DNA of 64,000 nt from the NCBI GenBank assembly GCA_022813865.1, contig JALDZX010000001.1, positions 62,001 to 126,000 of the forward strand. The letters run 5' to 3'. The notes below the pieces were generated by a model. The model had not been told where the DNA came from and ran no database searches. It saw only the letters and a program-made list of their open reading frames with translations. Positions within the stretch are counted from its first letter, which is position 1, and each line of letters opens with the position of its first letter. Below are positions 18,362-63,830 of this stretch, in pieces. The DNA comes from Xylographa opegraphella (taxonomy: Eukaryota). Position numbers and translations under genes: made by a program.

Positions 18362-19529
18362 ATGAAAGAGAATACTAGTGTCAGGTAAGGTGTCGCTCTG
18401 TGAGCGATGACAGAAAACCCCCTTGACTAACAGCGATGATGCCTAGAGCTGACGACGTCAAGCCTGTTTATCCGTTCCCGAATCAGGTAAGGGTCTCATA
18501 AGATTTTTGTTTCGTTTGTTCGGTCACTGAAAGTCTTCCCAGTCAACTCTAGAAAGCAGGCGACTTGGTATGAGGTGGTCGTGTGTATTGCCGACGCCGA
18601 CATCTGACTACGTCACACCTAGATGCTCAGCATGAAGTGTTCAAGCTCAGATTAGGTGCTTCGTACAAAGCACCCATACTCGAGACATCAAAACGAGTTC
18701 TCGATCTCGGTTGCGGTACAGGTATCTGGTCTCGGGAATTCGCAGCTACGCATCCTTCCGCCCAAGTGATTGGAGTGGACCTATCTCCTCCTGATGAGAG
18801 GTCTATTCAAAGTGAAACGCCCAGTAACTGCACGTTTATCAAAGCCAACTTCGAGGATGACTGGGAGTTTGCAATAGGCGAAGAGCCATTTGATTTTATC
18901 TATGCACGTATGTTGATGGCTGGAGTCCATAACTGGCCGCGTCTATTTCAGCAGTGCTACGAGCACCTTAGTCCAGGTGGTTATCTTGAGGTCTTCGAAG
19001 GACTCTTTGAAATGCGTGCTGAAGACGGAAGTGGACCAGACGATTCGCCTGGCATTCGCTGGTTCGCGTTAGGTGCGAAATATTTGACCGACAACGGTAT
19101 GAAGTGGGACAGAGCTAGAGATCTACTTGGACAGCTGCGTGAGGCTGGCTTCAATATCGTCGAGGACATACCCAAGAAGATGAAGCTTTATCCTGACGAC
19201 GCGGATCCTGAAGCGGAAAGGGAACGAATCAGTGCACAATATTTGAATGACATGAACGACATCGTGAAGAATATGACGGTCAAGGTATGCCAGGATGCTT
19301 CATCAACGCTGACTCTGGAAGAGGGGCGACTGCTGGCTGAGGAGGCCACACGGGATCTGACTGAAAACTGCAAACGTCGAGGCTATCATACCACACTGTA
19401 AGTACTTTCCTGATTTGAGGACTGAGAAAGGCGGCTGACTTTGCGTGAAGTTATGTTCGGGTGGCACAGAAGCCACAAAATAGTCAGATAAGTTATGCAA
19501 AGATTTATCATCACTTTCCACTAACATGA
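18362..19529 (+). CDS. Class I SAM-dependent methyltransferase, LaeA-like family
   Basis: Three short 5' exons (MKENTSVR/ADDVKPVYPFPNQ/STLESRRL) lead into DAQH. Motif I VLDLGCGTGIW, then VIGVDLSP, FDFIYAR and LSPGGYLE. Last exon YVRVAQKP... ends at TGA 19527-19529. Confidence 0.88.
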
Positions 19530-20141
19530 TGCACAGAACATTGGTATCATCCTTGATCGAAAGCGTAGCCCAAATCTGGAAAAGAATATGGTAGCCCGCC
19601 CATTACAGAAGTCTGTTGATATCCGCGAATGCTCGCCTGTCTCATTTCTTGCTGAGATATTTGCGGGTATTAGATGGAGCAAATCGAATGTTCATCTATC
19701 GTGCTCTTCAATATTCCACATATTCAACATCAACCAAATGTGGGGAACTCATGCCCAGCTTCCGTGTGGCGGCAGTGCACCGAACCTTTGGAGCCTTCTG
19801 CGCAGACTATATCGCATCTCACTCATTGCAGGATAACATGCTACATCACGACCGTCGGACCATCGGCACAACGTTACAGACTGCACTGATAACATCTACA
19901 AGATTTCGTTCCAGAACTGCTGAGAAACTAAATAGTGCATCCCTTACGAAAACTCAAGCTCGATATCAAATAACAAGAGTCTTTCACGTTTCAAGTCTAC
20001 CTCTTATCTATTCTTGTAGGATATCGGTTGTTACCATGTCAAAGCAAAGTTAGACTGTGTACGCAATGTCGCGTTGAAAAGGAAACTGTCACACGAAACG
20101 TCTTTCTTTACAGAAGGTCGGAGTTCGCCACCTGCACTCTC

Positions 20142-22196
20142 TCATCTCTGCAGCACTTTTGTGACCTTGAACCGAAGACCTTTCCCCGATTTGTCCGGCT
20201 CCCCTGCAATATGTGCCCAAGTGTGGTCAATATCTCGCTCTCGTACGGTATCGTAGAGCTCAAAATCGAATTGCCGGAACATACGTGCAAGCCCGATATG
20301 CAGCTCGGCGTTGGCAAAACTGAAGAACGCCAATCGATTAGTACCATAGGCCTCCAAATATCGAGGACTTCAAGCATAGACTTACTGCATTCCGAGACAA
20401 CCACGACGGCCTGCAGCAAAAGGCATGAAGATGTGTTTCATGGCTGCCACCTTCTCCTCTGACTGGAGCCAGCGCTCTGGAGAAAATACAGTCGGGTTGG
20501 GGAAATAAGCAATATCGTAGGAGTTACGCGTCGGTGTCATGGAAACTCGAGTCTACAATACACCTCAGTTGATCAGTGATGATGGATCATTGGGCCGGCT
20601 GATCGAAGCCAGGGGGAAAAATATGAAAATTGAACATACGCCTGCAGGAATAATCCAGTCCTGGAACTGTAGAGACTCTTCTGTGGGAATGAGGCTGAGT
20701 CGATGATCGGTGACCTTTCCAATACGGAGCGCTTCTTTGATGATGGAGTTCTGGGAGAGCAGTGCAAGTTAGGATCCAACATGCCACCTCGGTGCCGTCA
20801 TTAGTGATTTGCACTTACCAACCACGGTAGTCCCTCCAGCGTCCTCAACTCAATGACGCTGTGTGGATGCGGCATTACTGTTTCAAGCTCTTTTCTCAGT
20901 CGGGTCTGAATATCCTTGTTGGCGAGCACGTGATAGACCGCAATCCCCATTGTTCGGGCTGTTGTATCGCTGCCAGCCAGCAGGACTTCGAAGCCTTCGT
21001 GTGCCATACGCTCGGGCCGTTTCTCTTCTTCCGGAAGGCTGCTGGCCAGTATTGCGTGGTAGAGGCTGTAATAGTTCCGCTTCTCGCCGTCACTCTGGAC
21101 CCCCTGCAACTTCTCAAGGCGCTGCGTGGCTTCATGCTCCTGTCGACTTTTGTCCGCCAACCTGATCATTTCCTACGGCATTTGAAGCCAGGCGTTAGCA
21201 ATTCAACCTTATGAACTGTATTCGAAACAGCATTCGGCAGCATAGCCAGAGAATAGACTTACGACATGGACGGTCAGCAGTGTTGCCAAAGGAGTGTAAA
21301 TATACCAAAAAGGACCTATTGGTAATTCCAAAGCCACGGGAATGATCCACTCAAATTGTTTCAGAATCGGATAGAATCTCGCAAAGGCCTTGAAGACGCG
21401 ATCGAATGCCATGGCCCGCTGAGGATCATCAAGCAAGTTCAAGCACTCGCCGAATGCACAGCTTCTTAGGGTGTCATTCGACCAGCCAAGGAAGGTAGCC
21501 CGCCCATTTACAGCTCTGTTCATTTGATAATGCTTCTGAAACACATCACACATGTACCCTGCACGTTCCCATATCCTGGCCTGCATTTCTGTGACTGCAT
21601 TCTTGGAGAAGTATGAGCTCACTGGAACCCGGCGACGGCGGTGCATGGTATGAGATACAGTGCCGAATGCTGCAGATCTACATCAGCCATGATACTATGA
21701 CTGTAGATTCGATCAAGGCATACTTCCATCCGCGGTCCCAGCTGCATGAGCAAGAGACGGGTCTTTGTCACGTTTCTGCTATATGTCAGCGTCACCCATG
21801 TGAACAGCTCGGGGAGCCACAGCATACATGTCCAGGCCCAGCGTAGAGGACGTGGGACCATTGTGAGTCCCTGACATGGACCTCATCCGGCGTAACACGG
21901 ACAATGGGACCTGAAGCAATGAACAAAGTGAGTTGGACTTCTTTTGTGTAGCATAATGCTCTTGGTAATCACGGACCGTAGAAGTCATGCATCTCCTCAA
22001 CTTGGTTCATATAAGTCCCGCCTTGGCCTGCAAAGACATCTTGGAGACATTCCCACCAAGCTGTAGCGGCGGCGATCTTTGGACCCGGGAAACGAGCCAG
22101 CGGGTGGAAGTAGAGACGATAGATCACCAATGCTGCATTGTACAAGAAGAGGGCCAAAGTAATCCACCCAGCTGTTACGAGAGAGATGATCGCCAT
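20142..22196 (-). CDS. Cytochrome P450 monooxygenase (trichodiene-oxygenase/CYP58-clan-like), about 8 exons
   Basis: N-terminal TM anchor followed by [16 protein letters not shown]-helix AGSDTT, K-helix KEALR, FSPERW and heme motif [10 protein letters not shown] (about 20392-20425). Exons I checked join in frame. Confidence 0.93.
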
Positions 22197-24014
22197 CGTG
22201 GAGCCCCTCCGACGAGATGGTACTCAAAGAACAGAGTATACGGCCCATCGACGAAAGCCATTCCTCTACACCTTCTTCTCCGACTTCTTCTGCACCATCT
22301 TCCATTCTACTTCTGGTGCATCTCCCGCAGACAGGGACCTAGAGTATGGCCTGCAGGCGGTGGGGTATGCATGTGCATCGTCTGTCGTGCGTACAGTACG
22401 GGCCTCAATACCAATTTTACGATTAGTCCGCTGCACGTCTGCAGAACCGCCGGGAATGTCTGCCTCCAGTGAGAGTGGGACCTGACCCTTCTCCAGCAGC
22501 AGCTTAGCCAGCGCTCCTTGCAGTAGGGCGCATTTGGGAGACAACCACCACCGGTTTTCTCGTCCTTCCTATGGCGAGTCACTATCTCATTATCGTATAT
22601 TGTGCATGACACCTATCGCTCGAATTCCTACTCTTCTGCACAGGGAACAAGGAGCGTTCACAACCTTCGGGACTAAATCAGGGCCGGACACACACACACA
22701 CACTTCCTCTCCCTCTCCACCGAACGTGCCGCTTCGAACTCTCCGACTGGTCCGCCGCTCTGGTTCGCAATGACGAGATCCTCGACGGACCCTCCTGCTA
22801 CGAAGAACTCGCTGGCAGGAGTCCGAAAGTCAATTGACCACTACGCCCGCACATCCCACGACAAAAGTCAATTTCCCACTCCAGCTTACGCTGTCAAAGT
22901 CGCTAGCCAGCCCCATCGCTCTGGCTGACTACTTCCTTGACCTGCCTTCGTGCCATCCGAAACCCGCTTTCTCAGACCGTGCTATGGACTGCCCACGTGT
23001 ACCCGCACCCCTCCCTGCCCCCTGTCTACAGTGATACCGAGGCCATTCATTGCCTGTGCAGCGGCCCTCCTCACCACTCCTCATCGCTACTATCGCCAAC
23101 GGCGACCCACTCCCGAGCAGCGCCCCCGTCCCGTCTCTTGACGACTCGGCTCGGCGCTGACAGCCTGCTGACAGCGGCAGTTGTCGGCTGGCTCGGACGT
23201 ACATATGTATGGCTGGGTGCTCCGCTGACAGCTTCGGTGGATGTCCTTCCCACCATCGCGCGATTTGAGACCCCGATGCGCAAGGCACCGTGTTCCCGTA
23301 GATATGCCTCGTAAACAAGAGTAATTAGGGGCGAATTTGCGAGCGCGCAACTAGGCGTAATGCAAATAGCTATAATCACAAATTCGATGATTTCCAGCCG
23401 TAGGAAAACCCGCTCGCTGGGTATCAACACCGCCACCCGCAGTAGCAGTAGAAGCCATATACCTGACCAAGCTTCCAGCACCGTAGGAAAACCCCCCTTT
23501 CCCAAGAAAGTACATCTCAACAACCCACCCACTTCAGACTGTCCATACCCATTCATCCATCCACCATATATATTACTCCAACCCCTATATATCTCCCCAG
23601 CAACGGAAGAAAAAAAAAACTCCCCCACGCGTAGATCTGTCATTTGTAGAAAGTTATATATATACAATGTTCCATCCCGAGAAATTTTTTTCACCCATCC
23701 AACAGAACCCCAAACCGTACAAAAAGCCCGCCCGGGTTATTTCTGCGCTTTTGCGTCACGCCGGACAGGAAGGGGAACGAGCCGTGGCTCGCTGCGTGCC
23801 GCCGGCCCAGGCTCGCGAACGACGCGAGGGGTGGATTTGCGGGGTTGGGGATGGGAGGATGGAGGATGGGAAGTGAGACGTGGCCAGACCACGCCACAAC
23901 ACAGCTACCGTATCGTATCGTACCGAAGGGCCAGAGCAGACGGACAGCAGAAGATATCGACACACCACACCCGCCCCCACCCACCGCGCCTCCGTTCCTT
24001 TCGCGCAAGAGAGC

Positions 24015-25416
24015 CTACGCCATATCGCCCGCATAAACCGCCTTCCCATGATCCCTACCGTGCCCAAACCCCTCGGGACTATCGGCGTCCCTCCCGCCCA
24101 CGGGCTCATGGCTGACGGTGATATCGTGCGTCATCTTGATGCCGTCGGCGGTAACCATCGCCTCCTGGCTAGTGTTGCGGGAGCCCAGCTTGCGGAACGC
24201 GTCGGCGTGCGGGCCGTCGCCGCCGGCGCCGTCGTCGCCGCGGGAGCTGTGGGCGGTGAATTTGCGGCGGGAGAAGACGGGCCCGGAGAAGAGGCTGTGG
24301 TCGGAGCGGTGGTGCTGCGTCAGGCGGGAGGCGGAGAGGCGGAGGAGGGGCCAGAGTGGGGCGACGGAGGAGGCGATGAGGACGATCCACATTTCGGTCA
24401 TGCCCCAGATCATGAGGGGGGCGATTTCGTCTGTTGGGGGGTGTTAGTGCCGTGGCGGTGGTTGGCGAGGGGTGGGGGATTGGGGTTAGGGGGCCTTACA
24501 GGTCGCGTCGGGGGAGATTTCGAGCCGGTTGAATTGGGCTGTCTTGACGAGGCTGCAGATGGCGGTGAAGACGCCGAGGCCCATCAGGAAGCAGAGGATG
24601 ATTTTGAGCCGGAGCTGGATCTGCAGGTTGTAGATGATGAAAACGGGGTATAGGGCGAGCAGGAGATCGGTCGCTGCGCCCCAGGCTGTAGGAAGCGATG
24701 CGATAGTCAGTGTCTGGGGGCATTTGGAATAGTAGTACAGTGATAGGAGACGAACCTCCAGTGATTTCCGCCCAGATGATTCCGCGGTTGATGCCGGAGC
24801 AGTCGGCGTTCAGAGCCATGTTCCACAAACCGGCGGTGGGAGTGCACTGGGTGAAAATGAGAGGCACCGTCACGATGTAGCAAATGAACTGAATGTCGAG
24901 TCAGCGGGTCTGCGCTTTGTTTGACGGGGTTTCCACAGGTCTCCTGACATTGCCGCCGACGAATACTAAGAGAGCCCAGCGTCCATATCCATGCGTACGT
25001 CGTTGCACATCAAGGATGTAGCACATCGCAGAAAGCTTTGCAAAGCCTACGGAAAATGAAATCGTGCATGCAGCAATCCATTCGTAGAGCAACGAATCCG
25101 CCAAGTAAGGATCTGTGGCCACGATCGAGAGATGGTTTCCGAGACCATCGAGGGCTGCCATAACGTAAAGAATGACGCTGGGAACACCGAGGGCCTACAG
25201 ATCGTAAGCTCTTCCGCCAGCAAGATATCCAATTTGTGGGGTCCATACATAAGCCACGCAGGCCCATATGAGGGCCCATCCGCCTGACCGCTTGACAATC
25301 GTGAAATGCGTATATATACGGAGGCTCACGAGGATGGTACCGATACAGAACAGAGTGCAAGAAACTCCCGCAATGGCTGGTCCCAGACCACCGTAGTACT
25401 GGAACCGGGACGACAT
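24015..25416 (-). CDS. PTH11-like / fungal rhodopsin-domain 7-TM integral membrane protein without CFEM
   Basis: Spliced segments VSLRIYTH, GLGNH, SVGFAKLS, FTQCTP..LW, ATDLLLALYP, IWGMTEMWIVLIASSVAPLWPL and a cytoplasmic tail. Confidence 0.82.
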
Positions 25417-27629
25417 GCTGGCGATGGTGCCCTAAAAGAGTGTCTGTTGATGGAAAAGCAACGTGGAGTACAAGTCACAGCGAGCAGACGTCAAAATATT
25501 AAACATGAGTTCAGGAGATGTCACTGCACTTGGTACCTACCTTAGAATGGTTCAACTGCCACCCGTCGGCGTGTGCAGTCAGTCCCTGCAACACCATTCA
25601 TGCAACGAGGCACACCTCTTCGGACGGTATTATGCTTCCATCAGGCACAGCACTCGCACTATTCGTTCCGGCTTCTCTCGGTTCGGTAACGGCAGGAAGG
25701 ACGCCAAATCCCAGAGCCGGGAATAGACGCGTAGAGTGGAATTCGAGGAGATTCAAACCCGCGAGGCTGCCGTAAGAAGTCAGATTTCATTACCAATCGA
25801 GCCTCTGTAGCTGTGGAGTTGTCCACATCCGCACATTTGTCTACAAAATCAGTGATAGAGCCACGCGACGAAGGATGGCATGACCCCCACATCTTTCGAT
25901 TAGCACGGCCAAAAATAACGACACCACTCTACACGAAGCAGGTTAGTACCGGTTTTAGCAAGGCTATCTCGGATTTCGCCCCTGTTATTGGGACAATTTG
26001 CCTACACGTCTACTGCAAAATAGCATGGAACGCTGTACCAACTTGTTCTCTAAGAACTCAAATTACACAACAACGTGCGATAAGAAGCAGCTTGCAGGAT
26101 TTCAAAACATGAACCAAAGTAACGGAAAACCTCAGTGGCTTGCCTATATCCAGCGTCACTGGAAGCGGGATGGACGTGCCAATTTCTGGCGAGCACGTCA
26201 CGCCACGGCGGGAACGATTGGCTGATCGACCTGCAGATGCGGGTCTGGGTTGTCACACAACATGAATCCCCACGCTCAGCGGTTCCTGATCCGCATTTCT
26301 GCTTCCTTTAGGATTCTATCCAGTGGGCCACCTTGGGCCCACAACAACGGTCCTGCAGACTCTCTTAATTCTTAAATGGACGTCTTGTCTACAGCAGTGT
26401 TACCAAGAGGCGATTGCAGAATTATTGCCAGCGAGTCTGCCCAAGGAATGGGATAATTCGTGCGCCAAAGCGTTGAACTCCATACTGTAAGACGACTCGA
26501 ATACTCCGTCCTGCCGTCCACTACGAAGTTAGCGGCGCTCGTAAGCGTCGCTAACTGTAGCATTAAGGATAGTGAGTGGTATGGCTTCTTTTGGTGCCCA
26601 AACTCCGTGCCTAGCTGTTGATGTTGTCATGCCGCATGCAGCTTCGATGCAACCCTGTTCGGCTTTAGGATTGCAATTTGGATTATTTGTGCCTGCCCCT
26701 CCTATCGGGAGAAGTCTACTACTGCCTCGTTGTAATCGTTTGGAACGATCGACCGTCGGATCCGCACGATAGTCCATTTGCATCCGTACCACGGTTCTCT
26801 GCTGATTGATAGAATAACATGCCGTGTGTTCACAACTCAGCAGATCCAATATTGCTCCATGCACCAGTCATTTCCCTGCGGACACGAAGGCCCAGAACGT
26901 CCAGAATGACTGAGCAAAATAGCGTGTACCAGCTTCTGTCATGTCGATCGCAACACCAATGTCTGGGACGGTAGAGACAGCGATCGCAAGCGAGCATGAC
27001 AAGTACCTGGGAAGCGGCCTGAAATCTAGGTGTGACGGCTGGGGCCATTGGGGAGAAGACGTTAGCAGTCCGTGTGAAATCCTGGCACAACTTGGCTTGA
27101 TCCCAGCACGCCCATCTTTTAGTACAGGTACCATCTATCCCTGCTTCGGGGCTAGTAGATGGTCTTCGAGCTGGCTGGAACTTGAGCCGTCTGAGAAGAG
27201 CATTATGCAAGCGACCTCGCGCCATCCCTTCCTCATCTGCGATCCGTGCCGCTCGGCGTGGCTCCTCTCAACTATTGGGGCCAAATCGCCGTCGATGAGC
27301 CGGGGAGATCCTGGAGAGTCCTTCAGGGGGCTCTTGCTGTTATCTGACGTTTCTCATCGGAGATTGATTGGTCGGAATCGCCCGGAACGTAACGATTGCA
27401 AGGCCCCAGTTCCTGCTTCCTCAGAATCCCATGGGTGTTTTATTCGAGCTCACCCGATGCTCTATCTACGTCTGGAGCCATTCTACTTATGGTAGTGCGG
27501 GATCTGCAAAAGTGTGACTAGTCCAATATTGTGGACGTTTCTTAGCTTCTCCGAATAATACAGACATGAAGTCTCTCCAAGGAGTACTATTCGTGCTGGC
27601 GGTTGAAAACATCGAGTCGTATTGTGCAC

Positions 27630-27830
27630 CGAGGATGGCCAGCCAGTATTCAACTCGGACACACCGAGTTTGTGAAGGCTACGATATGCGCTAGCTATCT
27701 AGAATAGCGGAGAGTTTTGAGGAGCTCATCGGCAGCGGCTCGGTGCGGGACGCTGAAATCTTGGCCGCTGCCGAGCGCGGAAACCTGGGGAAAGTGCAAA
27801 AGCTTGCGAGCGGAGCGCAAACTCAGTCCG
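27630..27830 (+). pseudogene. Possible degenerate ankyrin-repeat gene remnant
   Basis: Two ankyrin-like pieces separated by stops or frame breaks: ASIQLGHTEFVKA and EILAAAERGNLGKVQKL. No intact ORF. Confidence 0.3.
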
Positions 27831-27960
27831 GCGTGACCATCTCAAGTCGAACATGCGTATGGTGTCTAATGAATACCATAGATACTAACTATAGAGAGCT
27901 CAATGCTGCTCGTCTGAGGGTGAGATAGGCTATGTGAATAACATGGCCGGTTATAGAACT

Positions 27961-29696
27961 TCAAAGGCGAATATAGATCTCATTTTGGTCTAATTTCTGG
28001 TGTACACCGTACCTTCCGGTAGAAAGACTGTTCATATTTCCAAGGTCAGCCGGAACATACAGGCAAAATCGCATTAGAGTTGGCTGTACCTCCATGACAA
28101 GTTGCCGGTGCAGGCATACCTGCAACCGTCGACGAAGCTTTGAAGGGGCGCTGCGACAGTGGGATCTACGGAATATCGTTGCAACATCCGGTATGCGGCA
28201 AGGTCAAATTCTTTGACAGTCAGACGGGTTGTCTCCATTACATGATCGACAGCTGCTTGTGCTGATCGTAGTTGAGTGAAGAGGATAGGGACGAGGCTCT
28301 CTGCCGAGCCCTGAGCCTAGAAAGGAGTCAGTAACTTGATACATACTACGAATGCAAGTTCGTACTATCTCTTTCTTGACAGAGAGCAGGTCGTTGACAC
28401 TACGTTTCGAAGCAGTGAGTTAGTGAGTGTAGCTACACAACTGACAATTATGAACGGCCATCTTGCATCTCGACCGGTGAAATCAATCGGATAGCCAGAG
28501 CTCTCTTGGCATTCGAGCATATAAGAACGGAGTCTGCTGGTCGTCGCCCAAGTACAATTCAGGTACTCAGGGCGCTTTCAAAGTATGATACAAAATATGG
28601 CCTGGGAAGCTCCTAAATAGACCCACCTCGCATCTTTCTGGTCATTGTATGAGATCGGAGACTTACTTGCAAATGTTCGCATTTGTAAGGTCCCATAGCG
28701 TGGTCATATCCTCATCCTGCATGGTGTATGACGGCAATGTTGAATCATTGCTGAATCTAATGAATATTAGCACCACCCAGTTCGAGTATCTCAAACTGAA
28801 ATAACTGACTCAATGACAGCGAGCACGACCCTGACAGCGCTGGTACCAAGTCGATAGTGCCAGTACTCTTCTAGTGATACGACGTGCTCGCTCATTCGCA
28901 ATCGATGTTCAACCTCTGACTTTTCCATAAAATAGCCAATCTCATTCATGAAAATTCCTCTCTGTTCTAAGGGGAAGCCCTCAGTTATGATCACGAAAAG
29001 GTTTTGCACCTCGCCCACAAACCTCTTGTATAAGACTCCCGTAGGGCATCCCCAATCATGTCGAAAGACTTGATGACTGGATCGGATGTTTTCAGAAATT
29101 CCCCCGAAGTATCCAGACCAAGACGATTCTTGATGTAAGTCAGGGTTTCTGATCGGAATTTTTGGGCAAGGGCAAAATTGGCCGCAAGACTTCCAACATC
29201 TGAATCGATTTCTGCTTAACGTCAGCATGCAGCTGGCCATGCCTGGGGCTGTGGGTGTGTTTGGCGAACCATCGTCCCATATGAACAGCTGTCTATGTCA
29301 GCGAGGCTTCAGCGATCTCTTTGAAAGACATCGCACCCATATACACAAGAAGGTAACTATACGAAGCCTCTCTAGACTCGCGAATGGGAACCATGTTGCA
29401 CCGAAGAGTCCATAATCACCAGCTTTCAGCTTCCGAAGCTTTGGATGCAGAGAATGCAGACTGCTGTGGATCAGCACCTTGCGATACAAGGAGCATCTCG
29501 GAAATGCTGTCATTCTACTTCAGCGCGAGTACCTGTCTAGCCATGATTCTACATCGTCACGAATTCGCTCGACGGCTGCATTGGTTGCAAACGGCCAGGA
29601 GCCAAACGCAGAGCGAAGACCAGTGATCCTCAGCGTCTGGTCACGAAGTTCATCGAGAACGCCGACGCGAGAAGTGAGACCCATATCCACAATCAT
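27961..29696 (-). CDS. Class I terpene cyclase (probable sesquiterpene synthase), about 8 exons
   Basis: Manual splicing gives LFIWDDEIDS (DDxxD, split by an intron), YWHYRLGTSAV (pyrophosphate-sensor Arg), VNDLLSVKKE (NSE/DTE triad) and WSLSTGRY (WxxxxxRY), ending at TGA 27961-27963. All junctions are GT-AG and in frame. Start codon uncertain (29696 or 29684; an upstream exon is possible). Confidence 0.92.
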
Positions 29697-30738
29697 GAAG
29701 TGATAGATCGTATGGTATAGACATCGATCGTATGATTGCGCAAGATCTTCAGGCACATCCGAATCACTTGCAGCGAACCTTACCCCCACAACATCCCAGT
29801 CACCGAGGAGAGGATATCTTCACCCGGGATCGTGGCGGAGAATCGTACGCCAGTGTATGCTGTAGAAACCGTCACGGAGGCCAGAAGTTCTGGTAGAGGA
29901 AAAGCAGCGTGCTCCCATGCATTGGACTGACTCATTACGCGAAGCAGATACAGGACAGCTCCGGAAGTGCATAGCCCGTCCATCTGCTGTCAGACTAAAG
30001 AAAGTGCCTTAGAGTACTGCAGGCATGCTGAAGTGTGGAGCAGAAGCAGGAGGGGAGTGCGACCCAAGCCGGAAAATGATTAAAATCTCATGTAGTGTGG
30101 AGATGTTTTCGTACCGAGCTAGTAATTTCACTAGGGCGTCACCGGAATGAAGCCCTAAGGCAGGTGTTACTTTGTACTTGCAGGCAGCCTCGCAGCTTAG
30201 AGCACTCTTCCGCCCCTCGGCAGTCAGCGAACCCGCATTACTGCTCCGAGGTTGTGGCCAATCTCCACCATCAGTCTTGCCGATCGAGACACAAAGCGCC
30301 CGATTGCTGGCTTGCACAGTCAGACCACCTACATCGACTACCTAAGTCCAGGCCGTGATTCTCCCCCGAGGGAAGGTTGATCCACATCGCCAGAAGCTCG
30401 TTGGCTTCGCTCGGACTGCAGTTCGACCACATGTCGCCGTCATACCACGAACCCCGTCGACGGCGAAACTTAGTGAAGTAAACTACTGCGAGGAGCTGAT
30501 GAGCAGGCTGTGGGGTCTGCCGTCCCACGGGATAGTGGGGACTCATAACGTGTAGACAGGATGCCATTTGAGGAAAGAGATGTGTTTTAGATTTCAAAGC
30601 ACCGAGGAATAAACTGGAAGCAGAATTGTCTATTAGAATTAAATAGTGCTATACAAAAACTTGAGTAATATGTACAAGTGTGTTCTATGTACAAGTCTAA
30701 CAACTTTTGATGCTTCGAGGTGCTGACCAGGAACTGGA

Positions 30739-33061
30739 TCATTGTCCACTCAAAATTTCGGCCGCGATCTTCTCCGCAAGAGCGTCTGAAAGCGAGATTA
30801 GCCAAGGGCCCTTGAATTGCACACGTGCTGAAGGGGTGAAGCAGCAGGCGCGTTTCATACTTACAGACTGTCCCTTGGGGATGACCTGGTGGTAAGAAAG
30901 GGAAGCTACTCGCGTCCACAACCCGAAGCCCCTGGACCCCAATCACACGGGCGTGGGAGTCAATGACGGCATTCGTGTCGTTACTCATGCCCATGGCACA
31001 TGTGCCGGCCGCATGAGAGATGGTTGACGCAGTCTCCATGATCACTTGGAAGATATCTGCGTCCGATGTAATGTTGGCACCGGGGGAGAACTCCACGCCG
31101 CCATTGACAATGCTTTTGAGTGGGGCAGTCGCGAAGATTTGCCTGGCACGTTTGAAAGCTGCGACGGCCACCTCCTGGTCTCGTACATCGAGCAGAAAGT
31201 TCGGACTGACAACAGGATTGACGAGAGTGTCATTGGAGGCAATAGTCACGTTACCGCGCGAGAATGGCGCAACAAGAGCGGCCAGTGAGCTGGCATAGTT
31301 ACGACCGTCAGTAGGCAGACTAACAAGGTCGTTATCGAAAGGTACATATTCGACATCGGGCCAGTCGGGACCAAATTCTGCATCAAGAGCAGCGCGAGTG
31401 GATGCACTGAGAGCGCCCGCAGGAAGCTTTTCAAACGCTATATGGTGGTAGAGTCAGCCCATCGCGGTTTTACAGGAGAACATGCTACGCCAACGAGTGA
31501 AGCTTACCGAGAAAGTCAGCACCTGGATTGGTCAAGATTCCGGTGCGGTTTTGATTGTACTCCGCCACTGATTGCGCTGCGAATGCAGGACTTGCACTGA
31601 TTTGGCTGTGGGTGGTAAGGTTTACAGAATAAGCCTGGCCAACAAGTACGTGGTCCTACGAGCACGGTATCAGTATGTACATTTCTTATCTTCGTATAGG
31701 CGGGATTCGGTAGCTTCGATCAGTTTCTACTCGTGATTATATATGAGATTTAGAACGTACCCACATATTCTGGCCAACCCCAGGACGATCAGCAAGTACT
31801 GAAATGTTGTACTCTGCTAATGTCGCACTGGGACCCACACCGGATACCATCAGTAATTGTGGGGAGCGAAACTGACGGTTGTTAGCCACATGATCACCGT
31901 CCTTGACAAAGTTCCAGCTGACCGTTCCTGCTGAGACAATAACTTCTTTGTTGGCCGCGATCATATATGAGAAGCCACCAGTGTTTAATTGAACACCGTT
32001 TGCATGGTTCGTTGCATTGAACATAACCTTCTGTGCGGTAGTAGTCTTGTAGACATAAAGATTCGATGTTGTTTCGAACGCTGCGCGAAGGAATGATGAC
32101 TCGGAAGAGGACCGCACTTGGTCTGGCGTGCTTGTTTGAGCAATGTAAGAATATCCCAGAAGATTACCGCTCGTAAAGCCAGGCACTTGGACCAAGCCCA
32201 ATTTGCTAAGGGCAGCTCCGAACCATGATGATATTCCGTTCACCCAGTATGGATATGCGACCTGAAGGGGTCCGCCTTGAGAACTGAAGGCAGCGGAATC
32301 GTAGGAAGCCGATGCATTATTAGGACGAATCTTGTTTAACGGAGGGAAGAAGAATGGACTTTTTTTGAAGTATTGGTCCAGATTGCTGAATGTGTAAGTA
32401 GCATCACCAACTTGGTTGGCCCACTTTTGATATGCACCAACGGCGCTCCTGTAATGAAAAGTCAGCCGAATGCCGTTGACTTCGGCTGGAAGCTTTCCAG
32501 TGATACAACGTACCTCATGTACCAGAGGAAGTTCCTTGCACTTCCACCACCAAGGGTTTTGCCAGACGCATAATGGATAGCGCGGCCTCCGAATCCCTAA
32601 ACCTACACGTTAGCCTGTAGATATTCCATGCAGCGGTGTTACTGTTCCCGCTATACTATAGAAGCAGAACTTACCGGTTGAGGGGTAGTGAATTGATACC
32701 AATCAACAAGAGGATTCCTGACCACCGGTTCTGCCTCAAGCCAATAGACCACGTCGGCCGGGATCTGTGTCAAATTGGCGTTGTCCTCTTCATAGAATCC
32801 ACCGGCCTCTATCAAGGCCACTGTTGCTGAGGAACCTTGTGCCAGTCGCGTAGCCAACGTGATCCCCGCGGTACCACCTCCAACAACTATATAGTCATAT
32901 GAAGCTGGAAAACCAGGAATCCCGAAATGAGATCCCAACAGGCCAGATGCAGCAATTACATCCTGGAATAGGGTAGTTGGTACGCTGCGTTCCTGTGGAC
33001 TACCGGTCGACACCACAGATTGGACGCAAAGCGCCCAGATAGCAGAAGTGAGAGATAACAT
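30739..33061 (-). CDS. Secreted GMC (glucose-methanol-choline) oxidoreductase, multi-exon
   Basis: Signal-like N-terminus MLSLTSAIWALCVQSVVS, FAD-binding YDYIVVGGGTAG, GKTLGGGSARN, SPQLLMVSGVGP, and catalytic His pair in ISHAAGTCAMG and PPGHPQGT. Also GLRVVDASSFP. Confidence 0.93.
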
Positions 33062-35529: not shown

Positions 35530-36857
35530 ATGCCTCTTACCGTCGCAGAAGTCCTTGAGCATCCTGCGTATCCTCATGTGATATGGAACTTTCAGCCGAG
35601 TAAGAAAGGCAAAGTCGCCGTGGCGAATCGACGAGGTGGACCGTTCGATATTGCATTCGAGGTTCATGGCAGCGGACCTAACCACCTTGTGGTAAGTCAG
35701 CTTTGATTTGTTCTGGAAGTCCCAAACTGTGTCTGGCATCGGACAGAGCTAGCTCGCCTCAAGACATCTCTTTTTACATGCTAATTATCACGTCAGTGGG
35801 TTATGGGTTTAGGGGCCTTGAAGTGGTTCTGGCAGCGGCAGACTAAAGATTTCGGGCATGACCGGAGTTCGAAGTACTCCTGCTTGGTATTCGACAATCG
35901 AGGTATGGGTGAAAGCGATAAGCCTATTATGCGATATACAACATCGGAGATGGCCAAAGACACTCTAGAAGTACTCAACCACCTCGACTGGACATCCAAA
36001 CGAGAGCTACATATCATTGGGATCAGCATGGGTGGAATGATTGCGCAGGAAATGGTCAGTGATACAAACGACTCTTGCTACAGAGCCCCATGCTGATATC
36101 TCAAATGAATAGGCATATCTTGAGCCTGAACGCATCGCTTCTCTCACGCTTGTTTCTACGGCAGCAGAGCTCAAGAGTACTGTCGTATGTGGTGCTGCGA
36201 AGCCTTCCACCATGTTATATTGATACAACTTCTAGGGATACATCGAGAACCTTCGGAATCGAATCAATATCCTGTAAGCCCATGCAATACGTGATTTTCA
36301 GAATCCTACAGTACCCTTCCTGCGTTCTGTCGCGTTCTTTCGTCGCCCTGCGTCTGTTCTTTCGTCTATCGTGCGTCATGCTATTGCTGAAAACCTTGAG
36401 TTTCAGAATCCCTAAGTCTGTCGATATCCAACTTGACGAAGTAAAATCACGTGTCAGCTACTCATGGCTCTCCGCGCCCGATGTAGATGGTGAATTTCCC
36501 ACGAACGGCGATCGTTTTGCAGCACAAGAGATCACGAAGCGGCGAGATAAGGATGGCTTTACACGCCGAGGTTTCCTTTGTCAGGCTGTGTCCACTGTGA
36601 CGCACAAAAAGAGTGTCGAGCAGCTCCGTCAAGTAACGGAAACTGTAGGAGGAAGCCGTATACAGTTGCTGCATGGTACGATTGATAACCTGATTACTAT
36701 ACCTCATGCGCATGTCCTGTATGATAGGCTTGGAGGTGAAGCCGCTGGTGTCACCAAGACCATATTTGAGGGTAGGGGTCACTATCTGCCTTGGGAGGAA
36801 AGACAGGAGTTCAGATCATTGATAGAGAGTTTGGTTGAAAAGGTTCAGGCACTCTAG
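35530..36857 (+). CDS. Alpha/beta-hydrolase fold protein, multi-exon
   Basis: Exon 1 MPLTVAEVLEHPAYPH...FEVHGSGPNHLV. Motifs FDNRGMGES, nucleophile elbow GISMGG, HGTID (acid) and GRGH (His). Confidence 0.88.
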
Positions 36858-46102: not shown

Positions 46103-46605
46103 AGAATCTTTCCGATTCGATCAAGCACACAAAAAAGTATAGTATTAAATATTTTAGGACTTCCAAGGACTCAACGCTTGTCAAATACAGGTGCGAGCAA
46201 GAGTCGTGGAGAGCCAGTCGGATCAAGCAAGGTCCATTATCAGAGAACCAAAACCGCACCCAGATCTCAATCTTAGGCTGTCAATCAAATACTAATCCAT
46301 CGATTACATTCCAAGTTGCCTGTATATGGTTATGTGATTACGAGAGGAACCGTCCCACTTTTCTCCTCCCTAAGATCTTTTTTCGACTGCAAGTTTTCGT
46401 TTGTTCGGTAGTCTACCCAAATCGGGAAAACGTGGAGGACGATAGGACCTAGTACCTATCCTAGGATAATTTACCTGTAATCTATCTTATCGATAAAAAA
46501 CAAACACACAACTGCACTTCACTCCTCACCTCCAAGCCTCCACAACCCTCCCAACAAACGCAACACCTTCCACCCAGACCACTACCCACACCCCCCCACT
46601 CCACA

Positions 46606-47400
46606 ATGGACCCTCTCCCTCCCGACGCCATCCAACGCGTCCTCTTCGTCTCCCCCTCCGTCCACGTCTACGCCATCCCGCCCCTCACCAGCACAAAAGG
46701 CTACCTCGCCGCAAGCTGGACGACCCCCTCCGTGCACCAATTCCCTGCCTGCCGGCTGCGCATCGTGGAGACCGCCATCCCCTCCTCAAGCACCCCTGCC
46801 ACCAGCACCTCCCTCGCCCCCACCGCCTCCGAAACTCTCACCACGACCCTCCTCCTCGAAGACCCGTCCACGGGCGACCTCTTCGCCGCAAGCCCATACA
46901 CCACCCCCGCAGCGGTCTCTCCGGCGCTGGACTCATCGCGCTTCTTCGCCGTGCGCGTCGTTGGCGAGGGCGGGCGCAAAGCGGTGCTGGGCATCGGGTT
47001 CGAGGAGCGCGCCGAGGCGTTCGATTTCGGGGTCGCCCTGCAGGAGGTGCGGAAGGTGCTGGGGATGGATGGGGGAGGGGCCGACGGGAAGGGGTTGGTG
47101 GGGGAGGCGCCTGCGGGAAAGCGGAAGGTGGGGGGGAAGGAGAATGTGGCGGCGGAGGGGCCCGGGAAGAAGAGGGACTGGAGTCTGAAGGAGGGGGAGA
47201 GCATACATGTGGATGTGGGCGGGCGGGGGAGGGAGAGGAGGAAGGAGGGGATGGGGGTGGGGTGGATTGCGCCGCCGAGTGCGGGTGCCGGGGTGGGGTT
47301 TTTGCCGCCGCCGCCGAGCGCGAGGGAGGTGAGGGAGGAGAAGAGGAGAGAGGCGAAGGAGATGGGGTTCGATGACGGGGAGTTTGGGGAGTTTCAGTGA
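46606..47400 (+). CDS. Adaptin ear-binding coat-associated protein (NECAP, PHear domain)
   Basis: VHVYAIPP...GY.AASW, LEDPSTGDLFAASPY, LDSSRFFAVRV, LGIGFEERAEAFDFGVALQ, DWSLKEGESI and acidic FDDGEFGEFQ C-terminus. Intronless. Confidence 0.92.
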   Translation: MDPLPPDAIQRVLFVSPSVHVYAIPPLTSTKGYLAASWTTPSVHQFPACRLRIVETAIPSSSTPATSTSLAPTASETLTTTLLLEDPSTGDLFAASPYTTPAAVSPALDSSRFFAVRVVGEGGRKAVLGIGFEERAEAFDFGVALQEVRKVLGMDGGGADGKGLVGEAPAGKRKVGGKENVAAEGPGKKRDWSLKEGESIHVDVGGRGRERRKEGMGVGWIAPPSAGAGVGFLPPPPSAREVREEKRREAKEMGFDDGEFGEFQ

Positions 47401-47780: not shown

Positions 47781-49701
47781 TCAGCCCTCACCATCGAGCT
47801 CCTGGAGCTCTTTCTCTTTGGCCTCCAGCATCTGTCTCATCTCCTCGGCTTCCCGTTTCAGTTTCGCTTTTCTTGTCGACTTCTCTAGCTCCGTGACGGC
47901 GCCACCAGGATCTTCATAGTCCAGAGGTCTCAACCGCTGTTCGGACGTTGGCATTGTATTATAAGGTTGATTTCGATGCTGTGGCTGGGAGCTACCGCTT
48001 CTTTGGTACCTGGTATCCATAACGATGTCATCGTTACTTTTGCCAGGTTGTTGAGCAGGGTTTAGTATCGAAGATATGGAGCTCAATCGATTCGATCGGG
48101 CGCTGTCTGGCGTGATCTCAAGCCCACTGGTGCCTTCCGCAGCAGCGAAGCTTCGCTTCCGGGTGGCCTCTGGCTTCGATAATTGCGAGGCTGGGCTTGT
48201 CTGCAAAGGTGGGATCGACATTGGTGGGTTGTAAGGTGATGAGAAATGCAGATTTTTCAAACGTTCCTGAGGATAGGTATCGGGCGACATCGAAGGAGGA
48301 CGTCCAAAACCGGTGAAATCTGTCGGGATTGCCTCATATTGGCGGTCTGTCGACCGGTTTCTTGGACGAAGACCAAGGCTGACTGAACCGTCATAATTTA
48401 TGTTCGAAAGTCGGCTTTGTTGCAATTGTGGTTCCGAGGTGGAAGCTGGAGATGCATCAGGAGAAACGGAAGTCGGAGGCAAGGTTCGGGAATTTGATGG
48501 TTCAGGTCCCTGATCCGAAAGTGCAGGTACCACTCTTTTTCTGCGTTTTATAGTAGATTTCTTCATTGCGACTGGTCTGGTAACTCCGTGCAATTTGTGG
48601 TATAGGCCTGCAAACCCGCCGTTAGTGGATTAAAAACTTTCGAGGAGATTTCTGAAAGCTTACCGCAAGCATTACATATGGTATGGCCTGCATCATCACG
48701 CCGCCAAAGAGGGGTGATGGTAGTGCCACAATTCTTGCATGATAGTTCAATACTACCCGAAGCACTTGTCGTTGAGGATTTGTCTTGTAAAGGGGTCAAC
48801 GGATCGGCTTCCCCTTGCATTTCTTGAGAAGTTTCATTATCATCGTCTTGATCACCAGCATTGGTTGTCCGATTTGCTGATTGTGGATTGTTTACTTGAG
48901 CTTTCTTCGAAAGTCGATTATTGTATGCCGGGCAGCCATTACAGCCATCGGCGCCTCCTGTGCCATTACAGCGACCACCTCCAGGGCAAGAACCTGTCGG
49001 CACCTGATGCGGAACCAGATCGGCTGTTCCAGTTTGCAACATCGAACCGTTTGGACCTGAGGGTGATATACTTTGGCGACGATCAGAGGTATCTGGTTCT
49101 GATGTAGATGCTGAAGTTGGGGGCAAAGGAGATCGTTTCAGGTTGATCGGCCGCGATGTGTTTCGTGCTTTCAGATATAATCCACATGCATTGCAAATGG
49201 TGGATCCGGTAGGCGATCGTCGCCACAAAGGAGTCTTAGATGTCCCACAATTGCTGAATATAAACTTTAGCATTTCTAGCATCAAAACTTAAATGGTACG
49301 AATTGCTCCACGGGAGATGCTCACCTGCATACCTGACCCAAAACAGTCGTGTTGACCAAGGGATATTGAAAATCGGTATTGTTATCATCCACAACTCTTT
49401 GGGGAGGGGTTTGTGTTTGCTGTCGAGCACTATACTCCGCTTCGGCCGAATCACTCATGTCGGAGTTTTGCCAGCGACGAAATGCATCTTGTGACGCAAT
49501 TGAAGCGCTGCTCCCCGCATTCATTCGCCCTTCCTGAGCATGCTGCAGAAGCTGATGAGCGGCATCATACTCGTCTTCCGAGGTCTGTCGAGGGGAATTC
49601 GAGGAATATGGCAGCTTTGTCGACACTGGCGAAAGTCTTTCCTTTGGGCCCGCCGTTTGAGGATCTGTCATCGTGGCATACCCTCGTCCGCTGCCCGCCA
49701 C
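47781..49701 (-). CDS. sreA: Iron-responsive GATA repressor SreA/SRE
   Basis: Two GATA fingers ([22 protein letters not shown], split by an intron; [23 protein letters not shown]) flank the Cys-rich iron-sensing region [23 protein letters not shown]-terminal coiled coil. Confidence 0.95.
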
Positions 49702-50134
49702 TGAAAGGCTACCGGGAGGCTTTGGCCGTCTTCTGAATCCGATAAGACTTTTGTGGACTGCGTGTTATGGTATCCATCAACTATGGCCAACAGAGGTTGC
49801 AAAAGGGTATATTGAGGCACCGACGAACAACTCGCAAGGGAATGAAAAGCCGGATAAAAGCCGTTGTGGCTGTCGGAAAGAGGACTCTGCGTGCGGAGAT
49901 ATACAACGAGGTCACGGTAGCACAGTCGCATGCAGACGAAGACAAAATGTACCACAACGTATGCACATGAAGGGGTACTGATAGTTGCAAGCTGCCGCCA
50001 GTAATCAGATGGAAGAGTAAAGTTCTCTACAGACGGGACCAGTGTGGAGGCCCGATGCGCGTTAGATGCGGCTTGACCCCAGACGCATGGTGGGATTCCC
50101 GGTGGTGAAATTGTTGCATGACATATAGCTCGCC

Positions 50135-57016: not shown

Positions 57017-57949
57017 CTAGGCTTCCTTTTCCACTGTAATAGATTTAGAGAATCGAGAGGAGTGAAAGATCTCCGATATGAAACAAGCCCAGCGCCAAGG
57101 CTCTCCCTCTTGAGGATGTTCTGAGGTGATAGAATTGAAATATTCCCATCCCATGACACCTCCGAGCTTAGGATATTTCTCCAATAGAGCTGTTAAGGTG
57201 CTTCGCAATAATTTATCCTCTACCCAACCTGAGCAGTTTCGTGGGTTTGTTACCAATCCAACGACTATTTTCTCCACCGGCCAACGAATTGCAATCTTTT
57301 CGTAGTCCAGCGTGGATCGCATGCAGCCCCACCCACAATAGAACTGGGTATTATACCACGCGATCTTATGCCCAAAAGCTTTCTCCAATACCTCATAATC
57401 AAATCCAGAGAGGTTTTGCTGGGCTCGCATTGCCGTCGCCACTGGTGCCAGAGTGATCAAGAATTCGGTTCCAAAATCTGCCTTTAGGTGGTCTATCAGG
57501 CGGATGACTGCAGCAATAGACATGGCCTCTTCCACATCGAGGTCGAGCCCATCCAGGGCCATCCAAGCGATCATTTCCCGTAAAGGCTCGTAATGGGCAT
57601 TAAAGCTCGACATTTCGCCGTCTAGTGCAGAAAATGAGCCTTGATGTGCACCTCCAAGCATCCCCAATACCTTGATACCACTTTCCTGCAGCTTGCGAGT
57701 CTCGGCCCATAGCAGATCGTACTTTGTTGCCTTGTAAGGATCGTCGTTGAGAGTGATGTTGCCGGCAGGCTGATTTAGATGAATAGCAGCGACAATGACA
57801 TGAGTTGCCCCCGTCTTGTGGGTGATTAAGGGAAGGATCGATACGTATTTCCCATCATGGTAGTGAGTTTGGTGGTAGCAGACAATTCGTGGCTTGCTGG
57901 AGCTTGAGGTGGATGTGAGGTCCGAGCCGTCACACTTCAGCACACGCAT
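57017..57949 (-). CDS. GH18 glycoside hydrolase, endo-beta-N-acetylglucosaminidase (Endo T/Eng18-like), no signal peptide
   Basis: PRIVCYHQT, THVIVAAIH, KVLGMLGGA, catalytic DGLDLDVEE, WYNTQFYCGWG and GGVMGWEYFNS. Intronless. Confidence 0.85.
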   Translation of the reverse strand: MRVLKCDGSDLTSTSSSSKPRIVCYHQTHYHDGKYVSILPLITHKTGATHVIVAAIHLNQPAGNITLNDDPYKATKYDLLWAETRKLQESGIKVLGMLGGAHQGSFSALDGEMSSFNAHYEPLREMIAWMALDGLDLDVEEAMSIAAVIRLIDHLKADFGTEFLITLAPVATAMRAQQNLSGFDYEVLEKAFGHKIAWYNTQFYCGWGCMRSTLDYEKIAIRWPVEKIVVGLVTNPRNCSGWVEDKLLRSTLTALLEKYPKLGGVMGWEYFNSITSEHPQEGEPWRWACFISEIFHSSRFSKSITVEKEA

Positions 57950-58258
57950 GTTGACACTTGGGCTACAGCATTGATGCAACTGCTAGTTACTATGACTTGC
58001 ATGGCAGACCGTGATGTCTGGGAGTGCATTATTATGAGCTCAGGACGTCAAGAGCCAGCAGCTCTAAAGCACCAAGCTTTTGCACGTCAGATCTTGATCA
58101 AGGATGACGCACTAGCGTGAGATCTGGTGGAATTGTTATCCAGCTCTTCCGCAGGTTACGGCATCAACTGATTAAGTAGTATCAATTGTGTCCACCACAA
58201 CAGTCTTATTGTTAGTTGGGGTCAATTGACTTCCTATGAGTTTGCACAGAGCCTCACC

Positions 58259-61129: not shown

Positions 61130-62161
61130 TTGTATCCGGTGCGACCTCCCCCCTCCCCCTCCCTCCCCCCACCTTCCAACCCTACCGCCCCCTCCCCCTC
61201 CTCCACCTCCCCCACCAGCGGCAGCCCATCCTTCGTATACGCCACCACACCCGTCCAATCCATCACTACCGCGCCCTCCACCCCCCACCTCTCGGGCCCA
61301 AACACCGCTCGCGCCGCCGCGTGGTGCAGATAGGCCGCGATGGCGGGATGCACGACCGAGTCGTCCGTCGTGCCCCGCTCCCCCGTCGCGGACAGGTTCT
61401 TGCCGCCCCCGTGCAGCACGTCGCCCGCGCCGCGGAGGCCGCGGGCCCGCGCATGCAGGTAGTCGTCCGTGGGGCGGTCGCGCAGGCTGAGGCTGCGGCG
61501 CAGTAACGGGCGCGGTGGGCGTGCGATAAGAGACCCCGGCCGCACGGCGGCGACTTGGTTGCGCGCCGGCACGAGGAAGCCCGTGGCCGTGAGCGCGGGC
61601 AGCAGCGCGTTGGTGTAGCCGTTCGTGGCGAGCACGACGCGCGCCGCGCTCTGTCTCCACCGCCCATTCGCCATTGTCGGTCTTGGCTACCCGCGACGCG
61701 GGCGTGTTGGTGTGCAGCTGTAGCCCCAGCGCCAGCGGTGGCAAACACGTCCGCGGTGTCGACGGCGCGCAGATCGCAGTCGACGGCGTGTGCGCGCGCG
61801 CGCAAAGGCCGTGACGGCGGCGACGGTGTGCTGCTCGAGGGCGTCGAGGCGCAGGGCCTCGTCCTCGCCGAACAAGTCGCGGTGCTGCTGGAAGCGCAGC
61901 CACCACCCGGGGCGGCGGTGCGCGCTTCGAGCATCAGCATCCGCGAGGCGCGGCGCGCGCTTCGAGCAGCTTGTGTGCTGTGGCGGCGCCGGTGATGCCG
62001 GAGCCGATGATGCCGGAGCCGATGATGATGTAGTCGAAGAGGGTGGTGGTGGGGAGGGAGGGGGTGGTGCGGTGCGTGGCGAGCGGGTGGGGGGGGAGTT
62101 GCCAGTAGGACTGGGTGGGGTGCGGGTGCGGGAAGCCTGGGGCGTGGGCGCCGCCGCCCAT
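61130..62161 (-). pseudogene. FAD-dependent oxidoreductase (DAO family) pseudogene
   Basis: Family segments are spread over three frames: PTQSYWQLPPH..FDYIIIGSG, MLEARTA, FGEDEALRL, ARVVLATNGYT..LLP, VPARNQV, DDYL and DWTGVVAYTKDGLPLVG. There are internal deletions (no intact SGRNGG) and no C-terminal GxxGHG. Confidence 0.75.
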
Positions 62162-62749: not shown

Positions 62750-63830
62750 GGGGTTAAGAGGGGATTTCGCAAGCCGTGGAAAGTAGCCATGTGTTAATTG
62801 GTAGAAGCATCACTTGCTGTTCAGTACTAGCGTAGGAGGTATATGTCACGTTCTCGTGGCCTATACCGAACTTCACCGAATATACGATTACTGTTGCCCC
62901 CGCNNNNNNNNNAATACACGTGCCTTTTAATAGGTTATGAGCCCGGGTTAGCCTAGGTAGCAACAAACGTTAGGTCCAGCAGAACAGGTCTTGTTACTGC
63001 TGATATTCACGCGGCCGTACCCTCGAGCGAACGAGGCAGGATAGTGAATACCTCCTAGAGATCAGCGTGACGCTCAGCAGGAATTCGAACGATTCACGCG
63101 TGCTGCAGCTGTTGAAAGGTGACCTAAAGGACTGGTCCATCTATATAGGGGGAGAACGGGCAGCTCGATACCGATAGGACAACGAGCACCAGGGCAGCTT
63201 GATACCTACACGACAACAAGCAGAAAGGGCAGCTTGATACCTACAGAACAACAAGCAGAAAGGGTAGCTTGCTACAAACGCAATAAATTATTTTTTCTTC
63301 GACACATTCGATTCTTTTNNNNNNNNNNNNNNNNNNNNNNNNNNNNNNNNNNNNNNNNNNNNNNNNNNAGCGTCTATATTGCCTGCAGGCAACATAGAGG
63401 GCATTCTGCCAGGCAACGCTATTTCCAACAAAAAATAATAATTATTTAATAAAAATAAAAAAGGCTACGTTAATATACTGTTTAAATAAAACGATACAAT
63501 AATAATAAATTAATTAAATTTTTTATATTTTGTCTTAATATTTATATTCACTGTTAATACGCATTGATTATTGTGACTGTTGTATTTATTATAAATATTG
63601 TTTTTGAACGTGATTTTACGTGTCTTCTATGTGTTTTTACGTGTATATTATTTGTATTTGTATGTAATTCATAATACATGAAAAAACCTTAGGGTATCGG
63701 AGTTTTAGAAGACACCACTATACAGACATGTCGTGTAATAGGTAGGGAAAGGGAGTACCTCAGCGCATTTGCTATATATACTATATACTGCTATTATGTT
63801 AAATATGTTTTAGTACTTACTGTCTCTATA
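62750..63830. mobile_element. Probable RIP-degenerate repeat or transposon remnant spanning two assembly gaps
   Basis: Shift to TpA-rich, CpA/TpG-poor-looking sequence, very AT-rich at 63430-63700. No long ORF. N-runs at about 62904 and 63319-63368. Element family not identifiable. Confidence 0.45.
63191..63271 (+). repeat. 35-bp tandem repeat, about 2.3 copies
   Basis: AGGGCAGCTTGATACCTACACGACAACAAGCAGAA / AGGGCAGCTTGATACCTACAGAACAACAAGCAGAA / AGGGTAGCTTG. Confidence 0.9.

Follow-up and report, generated by a model that had tools for sequence, protein, structure and literature searches.

Five neighbouring genes in the genome of the lichen fungus Xylographa opegraphella raise the question of how many of them belong to a single sesquiterpenoid pathway. 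They lie in the 64,000-nucleotide stretch analysed here (positions 62,001 to 126,000 of contig JALDZX010000001.1, assembly GCA_022813865.1), hereafter the window, and occupy its positions 18362..33061, a span running from the ATG of a methyltransferase gene (18362) to that of a GMC oxidoreductase gene (33061), with a cytochrome P450, a Pth11-like membrane protein and a class I terpene cyclase between them. A first-pass annotation, made from the letters of this DNA, had proposed all five as one candidate sesquiterpenoid cluster. Our comparisons with other fungi point to a small, old cluster having the cyclase and the P450 as its core and probably a dedicated methyltransferase, a reading to which we attach a probability of about 0.62. 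That a real cluster is present is thereby placed on a firmer footing than before, through co-conservation of cyclase and P450 and one distant link to the methyltransferase; the boundary drawn around five genes is too wide or unproven.

The cyclase possesses every class I motif that was tested (DDxxD, NSE/DTE, the pyrophosphate-sensor Arg and WxxxxxRY), the intact elements being DDEID at 102, RLGTS at 205, NDLLSVKKE at 251 and WSLSTGRY at 335. Its sixth intron (28400-28666) is 267 nucleotides long, compared with 48-69 nucleotides for the other seven, and has canonical splice and branch sites; the spliced model is 86-87% identical to annotated Xylographa relatives. It is the only PF19086 (Terpene_syn_C_2) match found in the 24.7 Mb genome, where this and the other family counts given below are lower bounds. 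A search of the genome with the TRI5 family gave no matches, the control used with it being unmatched too. Using the full-length orthologue P0001 as query, 65 cyclases were found among 1996 candidates, and a tree was built from the window model, 38 of these 65 matches and P0097, most unnamed matches being left out. The resulting 20-row clade (support 98/96) spans Lecanoromycetes, Eurotiales and Bisporella, and no characterised enzyme within it appeared in our searches. The predicted structure of P0001, which is 87% identical to the window enzyme (predicted local distance difference test score, pLDDT, 84), has an all-helical terpene synthase fold. Two further features of this clade may be recorded. 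The cyclase of Bisporella (P0036), a member of the Leotiomycetes, groups with Penicillium and Aspergillus (100/100), which may reflect horizontal transfer, and Aspergillus ibericus, A. sclerotiicarbonarius and A. carbonarius have two paralogous clade cyclases each, on different contigs (P0037/P0039, P0045/P0040 and P0048/P0042, respectively).

The P450 likewise retains its heme Cys motif, ExxR, PERW, I-helix Thr and N-terminal anchor. It is 94-97% identical to the proteins of congeners and 62-71% identical to orthologues in Lecanora, Alectoria and Aspergillus. A search of the PDB returned generic matches only; we presume a likeness to Tri4-type enzymes, and the CYP58 clan is a putative placement. 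Searching with one exon as query found 7 proteins among 151 candidates scored. The sequence clusters of these proteins comprise 12 named records, one of which (P0014) is identical to the window P450 over 523/523 residues and was therefore dropped from all counts as non-independent. In 8 of the remaining 11, an orthologue of the cyclase occurs one to four locus or accession numbers away from the P450, on contigs of equal length. These cyclase/P450 pairs come from Xylographa (X. carneopallida 004651/004653, X. parallela 003605/003607), from other lichens (Lecanora helva 003488/003487, Alectoria sarmentosa 001868/001869 and 000947/000948) and from Aspergillus (A. carbonarius 125952/125951, A. ibericus RAK99752/RAK99749, A. 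sclerotiicarbonarius PYI05892/PYI05888). Because species of one genus are related and the two Alectoria records hardly differ, the eight amount to some five independent lineages. Each of the two paralogous Aspergillus cyclase subclades holds a P450-linked member, and pairwise identities of the two proteins over nine loci are correlated (rho 0.63, permutation p 0.002), a figure for which kinship alone could suffice. Identity is lower for the cyclase than for the P450 both within Xylographa (84-88 versus 95-96%) and within Aspergillus (86 versus 93%). Together, these records show cyclase and P450 to be co-conserved across two fungal classes, Lecanoromycetes and Eurotiomycetes.

The methyltransferase is probably a third member of the cluster. 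In Aspergillus varians a single annotated model (P0092) consists of a part from the cyclase clade and a methyltransferase part, and is most simply understood as two adjacent genes fused by the gene caller. The methyltransferase part matches the window methyltransferase with an E value of 1e-37 and finds in that gene its best match in the X. opegraphella genome, at 70+56 bits versus 33 and 31 for paralogues. A quick tree was built from 45 of the best 150 library matches together with the window protein and two of its own paralogues; there the two methyltransferases share an 11-row clade with a support of 99 in the Shimodaira-Hasegawa-like approximate likelihood ratio test (SH-aLRT). The family is large (5678 matches in the library and 7 other Methyltransf_23 matches in the genome), and no characterised enzyme of this clade appeared in the searches. 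The gene model is least certain in its first three exons, which are tiny. The structural model has a pLDDT of 95 and broad fold matches among class I methyltransferases, the best being 3mgg, an uncharacterised archaeal enzyme (template modelling, TM, score 0.65, Z 19.9). The farnesyl diphosphate (FPP) methyltransferase 9sm0 follows at rank 8 (TM 0.48), and FPP methyltransferases are absent among the 50 matches listed in another fold search. Given matches this broad, in which O-, N- and C-methyltransferases do not separate, the structure is silent on the acceptor atom. Where O-methylation by an S-adenosylmethionine (SAM)-dependent methyltransferase had been proposed as a possible step, the methyltransferase is real; as it belongs to Methyltransf_23 rather than to the classical Methyltransf_2, the O-methylation itself is something that we infer.

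A number of observations weigh against a cluster so composed. For 10 of the 18 named clade cyclases no P450 partner was found in what was a weak P450 search (the other eight have one), and three of the 11 P450 records (X. vitiligo, X. soralifera and X. pallens) yielded no clade cyclase, an absence that carries little weight since the intact nine-exon cyclase of the window was not returned either. Linkage was inferred from identifiers and not from DNA: scans of JGI metagenomes gave 85 pattern matches for the cyclase alignment and 149 for that of the P450, with no locus confirmed, so that synteny rests on the locus and accession numbers. For the methyltransferase, the link comes from a single fused model, that of A. 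varians. Among words of 8-12 nucleotides common to the upstream regions of the methyltransferase, P450, cyclase and GMC genes, none rose above shuffled sequences. Finally, the chemistry is assigned by analogy, because no characterised enzyme was found in either the cyclase or the methyltransferase clade.

All five genes are intact, as had been proposed: once introns with GT-AG borders are removed, each yields a model free of stop codons. Pfam matches on single exons confirm the family of each, and the catalytic motifs are complete. From left to right they are separated by spacers of 0.6, 1.8, 2.5 and 1.0 kb, the 2.5-kb spacer being single-copy sequence, and repeats within 17-36 kb of the window are confined to short pairs at chance level. 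The statement that no pathway-specific transcription factor or MFS/ABC transporter is visible also stands, neither having been found in a Pfam scan of the 18 spacer open reading frames (no matches at E<=0.01). If genes were uniformly spaced, the chance of lying this close to the sole cyclase would be about 3% for a P450, 0.7% for a methyltransferase of this type, 0.2% for a GMC gene and 2.5% for a Pth11-like gene. The figures were computed after the fact, for a genome in which accessory genes tend to clump; co-location alone is therefore weak evidence.

It is at the Pth11-like gene that a five-gene unit finds no support. In Lecanora, the two Alectoria records and A. carbonarius, the locus numbers of the core pair directly adjoin each other, which leaves no place for a Pth11-like gene between them at these four of the six non-Xylographa loci. 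One locus number does intervene in both of the other Xylographa records. The genome contains around 62 Fung_rhodopsin (Pth11-like) loci, and such a gene occurs within 6 kb of 8 of 37 P450 loci, compared with 1.1 expected. This roughly sevenfold enrichment indicates that they gather in accessory islands generally. The GC content at third codon positions is 0.75 in the Pth11-like gene and 0.47-0.57 in the other four genes, some housekeeping genes of the window being equally high. Judged by gene order, the conserved core does not include the Pth11-like gene, which is best regarded as a lineage-specific lodger.

The GMC oxidoreductase may be an optional late oxidase or else an unrelated neighbour. 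It carries a GGGTAG motif for flavin adenine dinucleotide (FAD), both catalytic-site histidines and 10 N-glycosylation sequons, and its best PDB match, and nearest solved relative, is patulin synthase PatE (8BXL; E 2.7e-51 and 7.1e-28 for two exons), with which it shares the C-terminal His motifs. The N-terminus, the sequons and the likeness to PatE suggest that it is secreted; a hydropathy scan, at its threshold, flagged no signal peptide. Were all four enzymes to serve one pathway, a final extracellular oxidation would yield an aldehyde, lactol or lactone. The GMC gene does lie on the same strand as the cyclase and 1.0 kb upstream of it, it is one of 6 GMC_oxred_C matches in the genome and has no close paralogue there, PatE itself acts at the end of a pathway encoded by a fungal cluster, and a larger unit would find room at two Aspergillus loci, where the core genes are separated by two further genes (A. 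ibericus, RAK99750-51) or by three (A. sclerotiicarbonarius, PYI05889-91). We nonetheless regard this arrangement as unlikely, given the missing common promoter words and the situation in Pleopsidium flavum, where the gene merged in front of the clade cyclase (P0078) encodes an Abhydrolase_6 protein, not a GMC enzyme, and was counted as an indirect hint against membership. A pathway limited to cyclase and P450, in which the methyltransferase would be either an accessory gene with no part in it or a regulator of the LaeA-like kind, seems to us decidedly improbable. Methyltransf_23 is a large fungal family that includes LaeA-type regulators, LaeA-like is the label that we would presumptively give the window protein, and the family's other genomic copies and the single distant linkage seen would agree with a bystander; chance neighbourhood, however, would rarely bring to the A. 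varians cyclase a methyltransferase of the same small clade.

A different role for the methyltransferase is prompted by the available text of PMC12723460, which presents a homoterpene pathway in Neonectria ditissima as the first of the methyltransferase-cyclase kind in fungi, with a bacterial-type methyltransferase. The ndi cluster described there resembles the present locus in that a fungal class I cyclase adjoins a class I methyltransferase, so that the window enzyme might by analogy C-methylate either FPP or the cyclised skeleton, giving lichens and Aspergilli a P450-oxidised C16 route independent of the bacterial SodC type. The evidence here does not favour this, and we allow it only a slender chance. 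The more specific version, in which a fungal-born enzyme methylates FPP before cyclisation to a C16 homoterpene as in ndi, we hold to be very improbable. It draws on the cyclase-methyltransferase pairing kept between two classes and on the presence of FPP methyltransferases among the fold matches, but the scores of the latter are no higher than those of class I enzymes unrelated to them. Moreover, NdiMT, which originated in bacteria, groups with bacterial SodC, and no P450 is among the ndi genes described in that text, whereas the listed Atlas clusters nearest the window methyltransferase are 96-100% eukaryotic, its family is fungal, and the most constant partner here is the P450, which provides the O-nucleophile that an O-methyltransferase requires. 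There remains the notion that unrelated genes have gathered by chance in an accessory island, or that the cluster is decaying. Accessory genes do clump, as the Pth11-like genes demonstrate, and the X. parallela cyclase model (P0002) lacks the C-terminal CTGNLxW..RY segment, through either mis-annotation or decay. Against this stand the linkage of cyclase and P450 in Lecanoromycetes and Eurotiomycetes, the intact reading frames and motifs, and an identity gap between the two proteins in Xylographa that resembles the one in Aspergillus. For cyclase and P450 this explanation is largely refuted, and overall we consider it barely credible.

Returning to a cyclase and P450 core with a probable methyltransferase, the pathway would begin with ionisation of FPP by the class I cyclase and Mg2+, affording a cyclic C15 hydrocarbon or alcohol. 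The P450, anchored in the endoplasmic reticulum, would then oxidise this product, possibly through several steps to a carboxylic acid, and the SAM-dependent methyltransferase would convert the hydroxyl so formed to a methyl ether, or the carboxyl to a methyl ester.

Comparison with known systems sets limits on how much further the chemistry can be taken. The best PDB match of the cyclase is trichobrasilenol synthase TaTC6 (7W5F/7W5G; E 7.5e-19 with a single sequence, 1.3e-30 with a profile), which is also the best fold match of the P0001 model (TM 0.87) and has DDEID in common with the window enzyme. At only 17-18% identity in the structural alignment, however, its product cannot be transferred. 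Brasilane clusters pair such a cyclase with a P450, and the bra cluster has a glycosyltransferase, of which there is none in the region here. Presilphiperfolan-8-beta-ol synthase BcBOT2 is the second PDB match (E 1.9e-15; TM ~0.8; 22-23% identity). The botrydial cluster to which it belongs follows the same logic of cyclase and P450; in it several P450s stand beside a transcription factor and an acetyltransferase. Among the cyclase matches is P0055, which carries the label 'Sesquiterpene cyclase hepA', at 40% identity; it falls outside the 20-row clade. The heptelidic acid (hep/vir) clusters have several P450s, an MFS transporter and a resistant GAPDH, none of which is in the region. The system in which PatE acts differs too, there being no polyketide synthase among the open reading frames of the window. 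BcStc3 was considered as a relative and rejected, its motif being DDMWE (PMC11120764, section 2.1) and its clade a different one; six names or accessions from our clade were sought in that paper's supplement, and none was present. According to PMC10210940, the models described in it were unable to predict the cyclisation type for ascomycete enzymes, and we accordingly name no skeleton.

The cluster family is apparently uncharacterised, although its type is familiar and an architecture of cyclase, P450 and methyltransferase is ordinary. No description of the cluster was found in a literature search to which most subscription journals and MIBiG were out of reach, nor were there papers on six accessions of Aspergillus clade members in the literature searched. 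As no characterised clade members were found, the product may plausibly have a new skeleton, or the methyltransferase subgroup may gain its first biochemical role; if the C16 route were true, lichens and Aspergilli would share a non-canonical terpenoid pathway. Lichen terpenes are without a definitive link to fungal clusters, according to the available text of PMC12136951, and the locus carries the sole Terpene_syn_C_2 cyclase found in this lichen-fungus genome. With the core common to culturable Aspergillus species, deletion or expression experiments can be used to look for the product, with no need to cultivate the lichen.

Table 1. Positions in the window of the five genes considered and of three ordinary genes outside the cluster.
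Feature	Position	Strand	Family and gene model	Assessment
SAM-dependent class I methyltransferase	18362..19529	+	Methyltransf_23, 5 exons, 313 amino acids	probable cluster member
Cytochrome P450	20142..22196	-	p450, 8 exons, 523 amino acids, N-terminal membrane anchor	core member
Pth11-like membrane protein	24015..25416	-	Fung_rhodopsin, 5 exons, 382 amino acids	outside conserved core
Class I terpene cyclase	27961..29696	-	Terpene_syn_C_2, 9 exons, 357 amino acids	core member
PatE-like GMC oxidoreductase	30739..33061	-	GMC_oxred_N/C, 7 exons, 623 amino acids	candidate member
DUF1681 gene	46465-47400	+	DUF1681	ordinary
GATA factor	47781-49764	-	two-finger GATA	ordinary
GH18 family gene	57017-57982	-	GH18	ordinary

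The five genes are bordered on the left by Npa1/Urb1 and Eap1 genes, and on the right by an alpha/beta hydrolase gene and a zinc-knuckle gene. In Pleopsidium flavum the merged hydrolase may adjoin the cluster. The window hydrolase (~35530-36857) was considered as a member and rejected, the merged Pleopsidium hydrolase having given no tblastn match to it; the two are not homologous. The contig also holds, at its position 15865, a second GMC gene, distantly related to that of the cluster (31-50% over pieces) and about 77 kb away from it. The two-finger GATA factor is presumably SreA-like. Close to the end of the window are two runs of N, at 62904-62912 and 63319-63368, comprising 59 bases.

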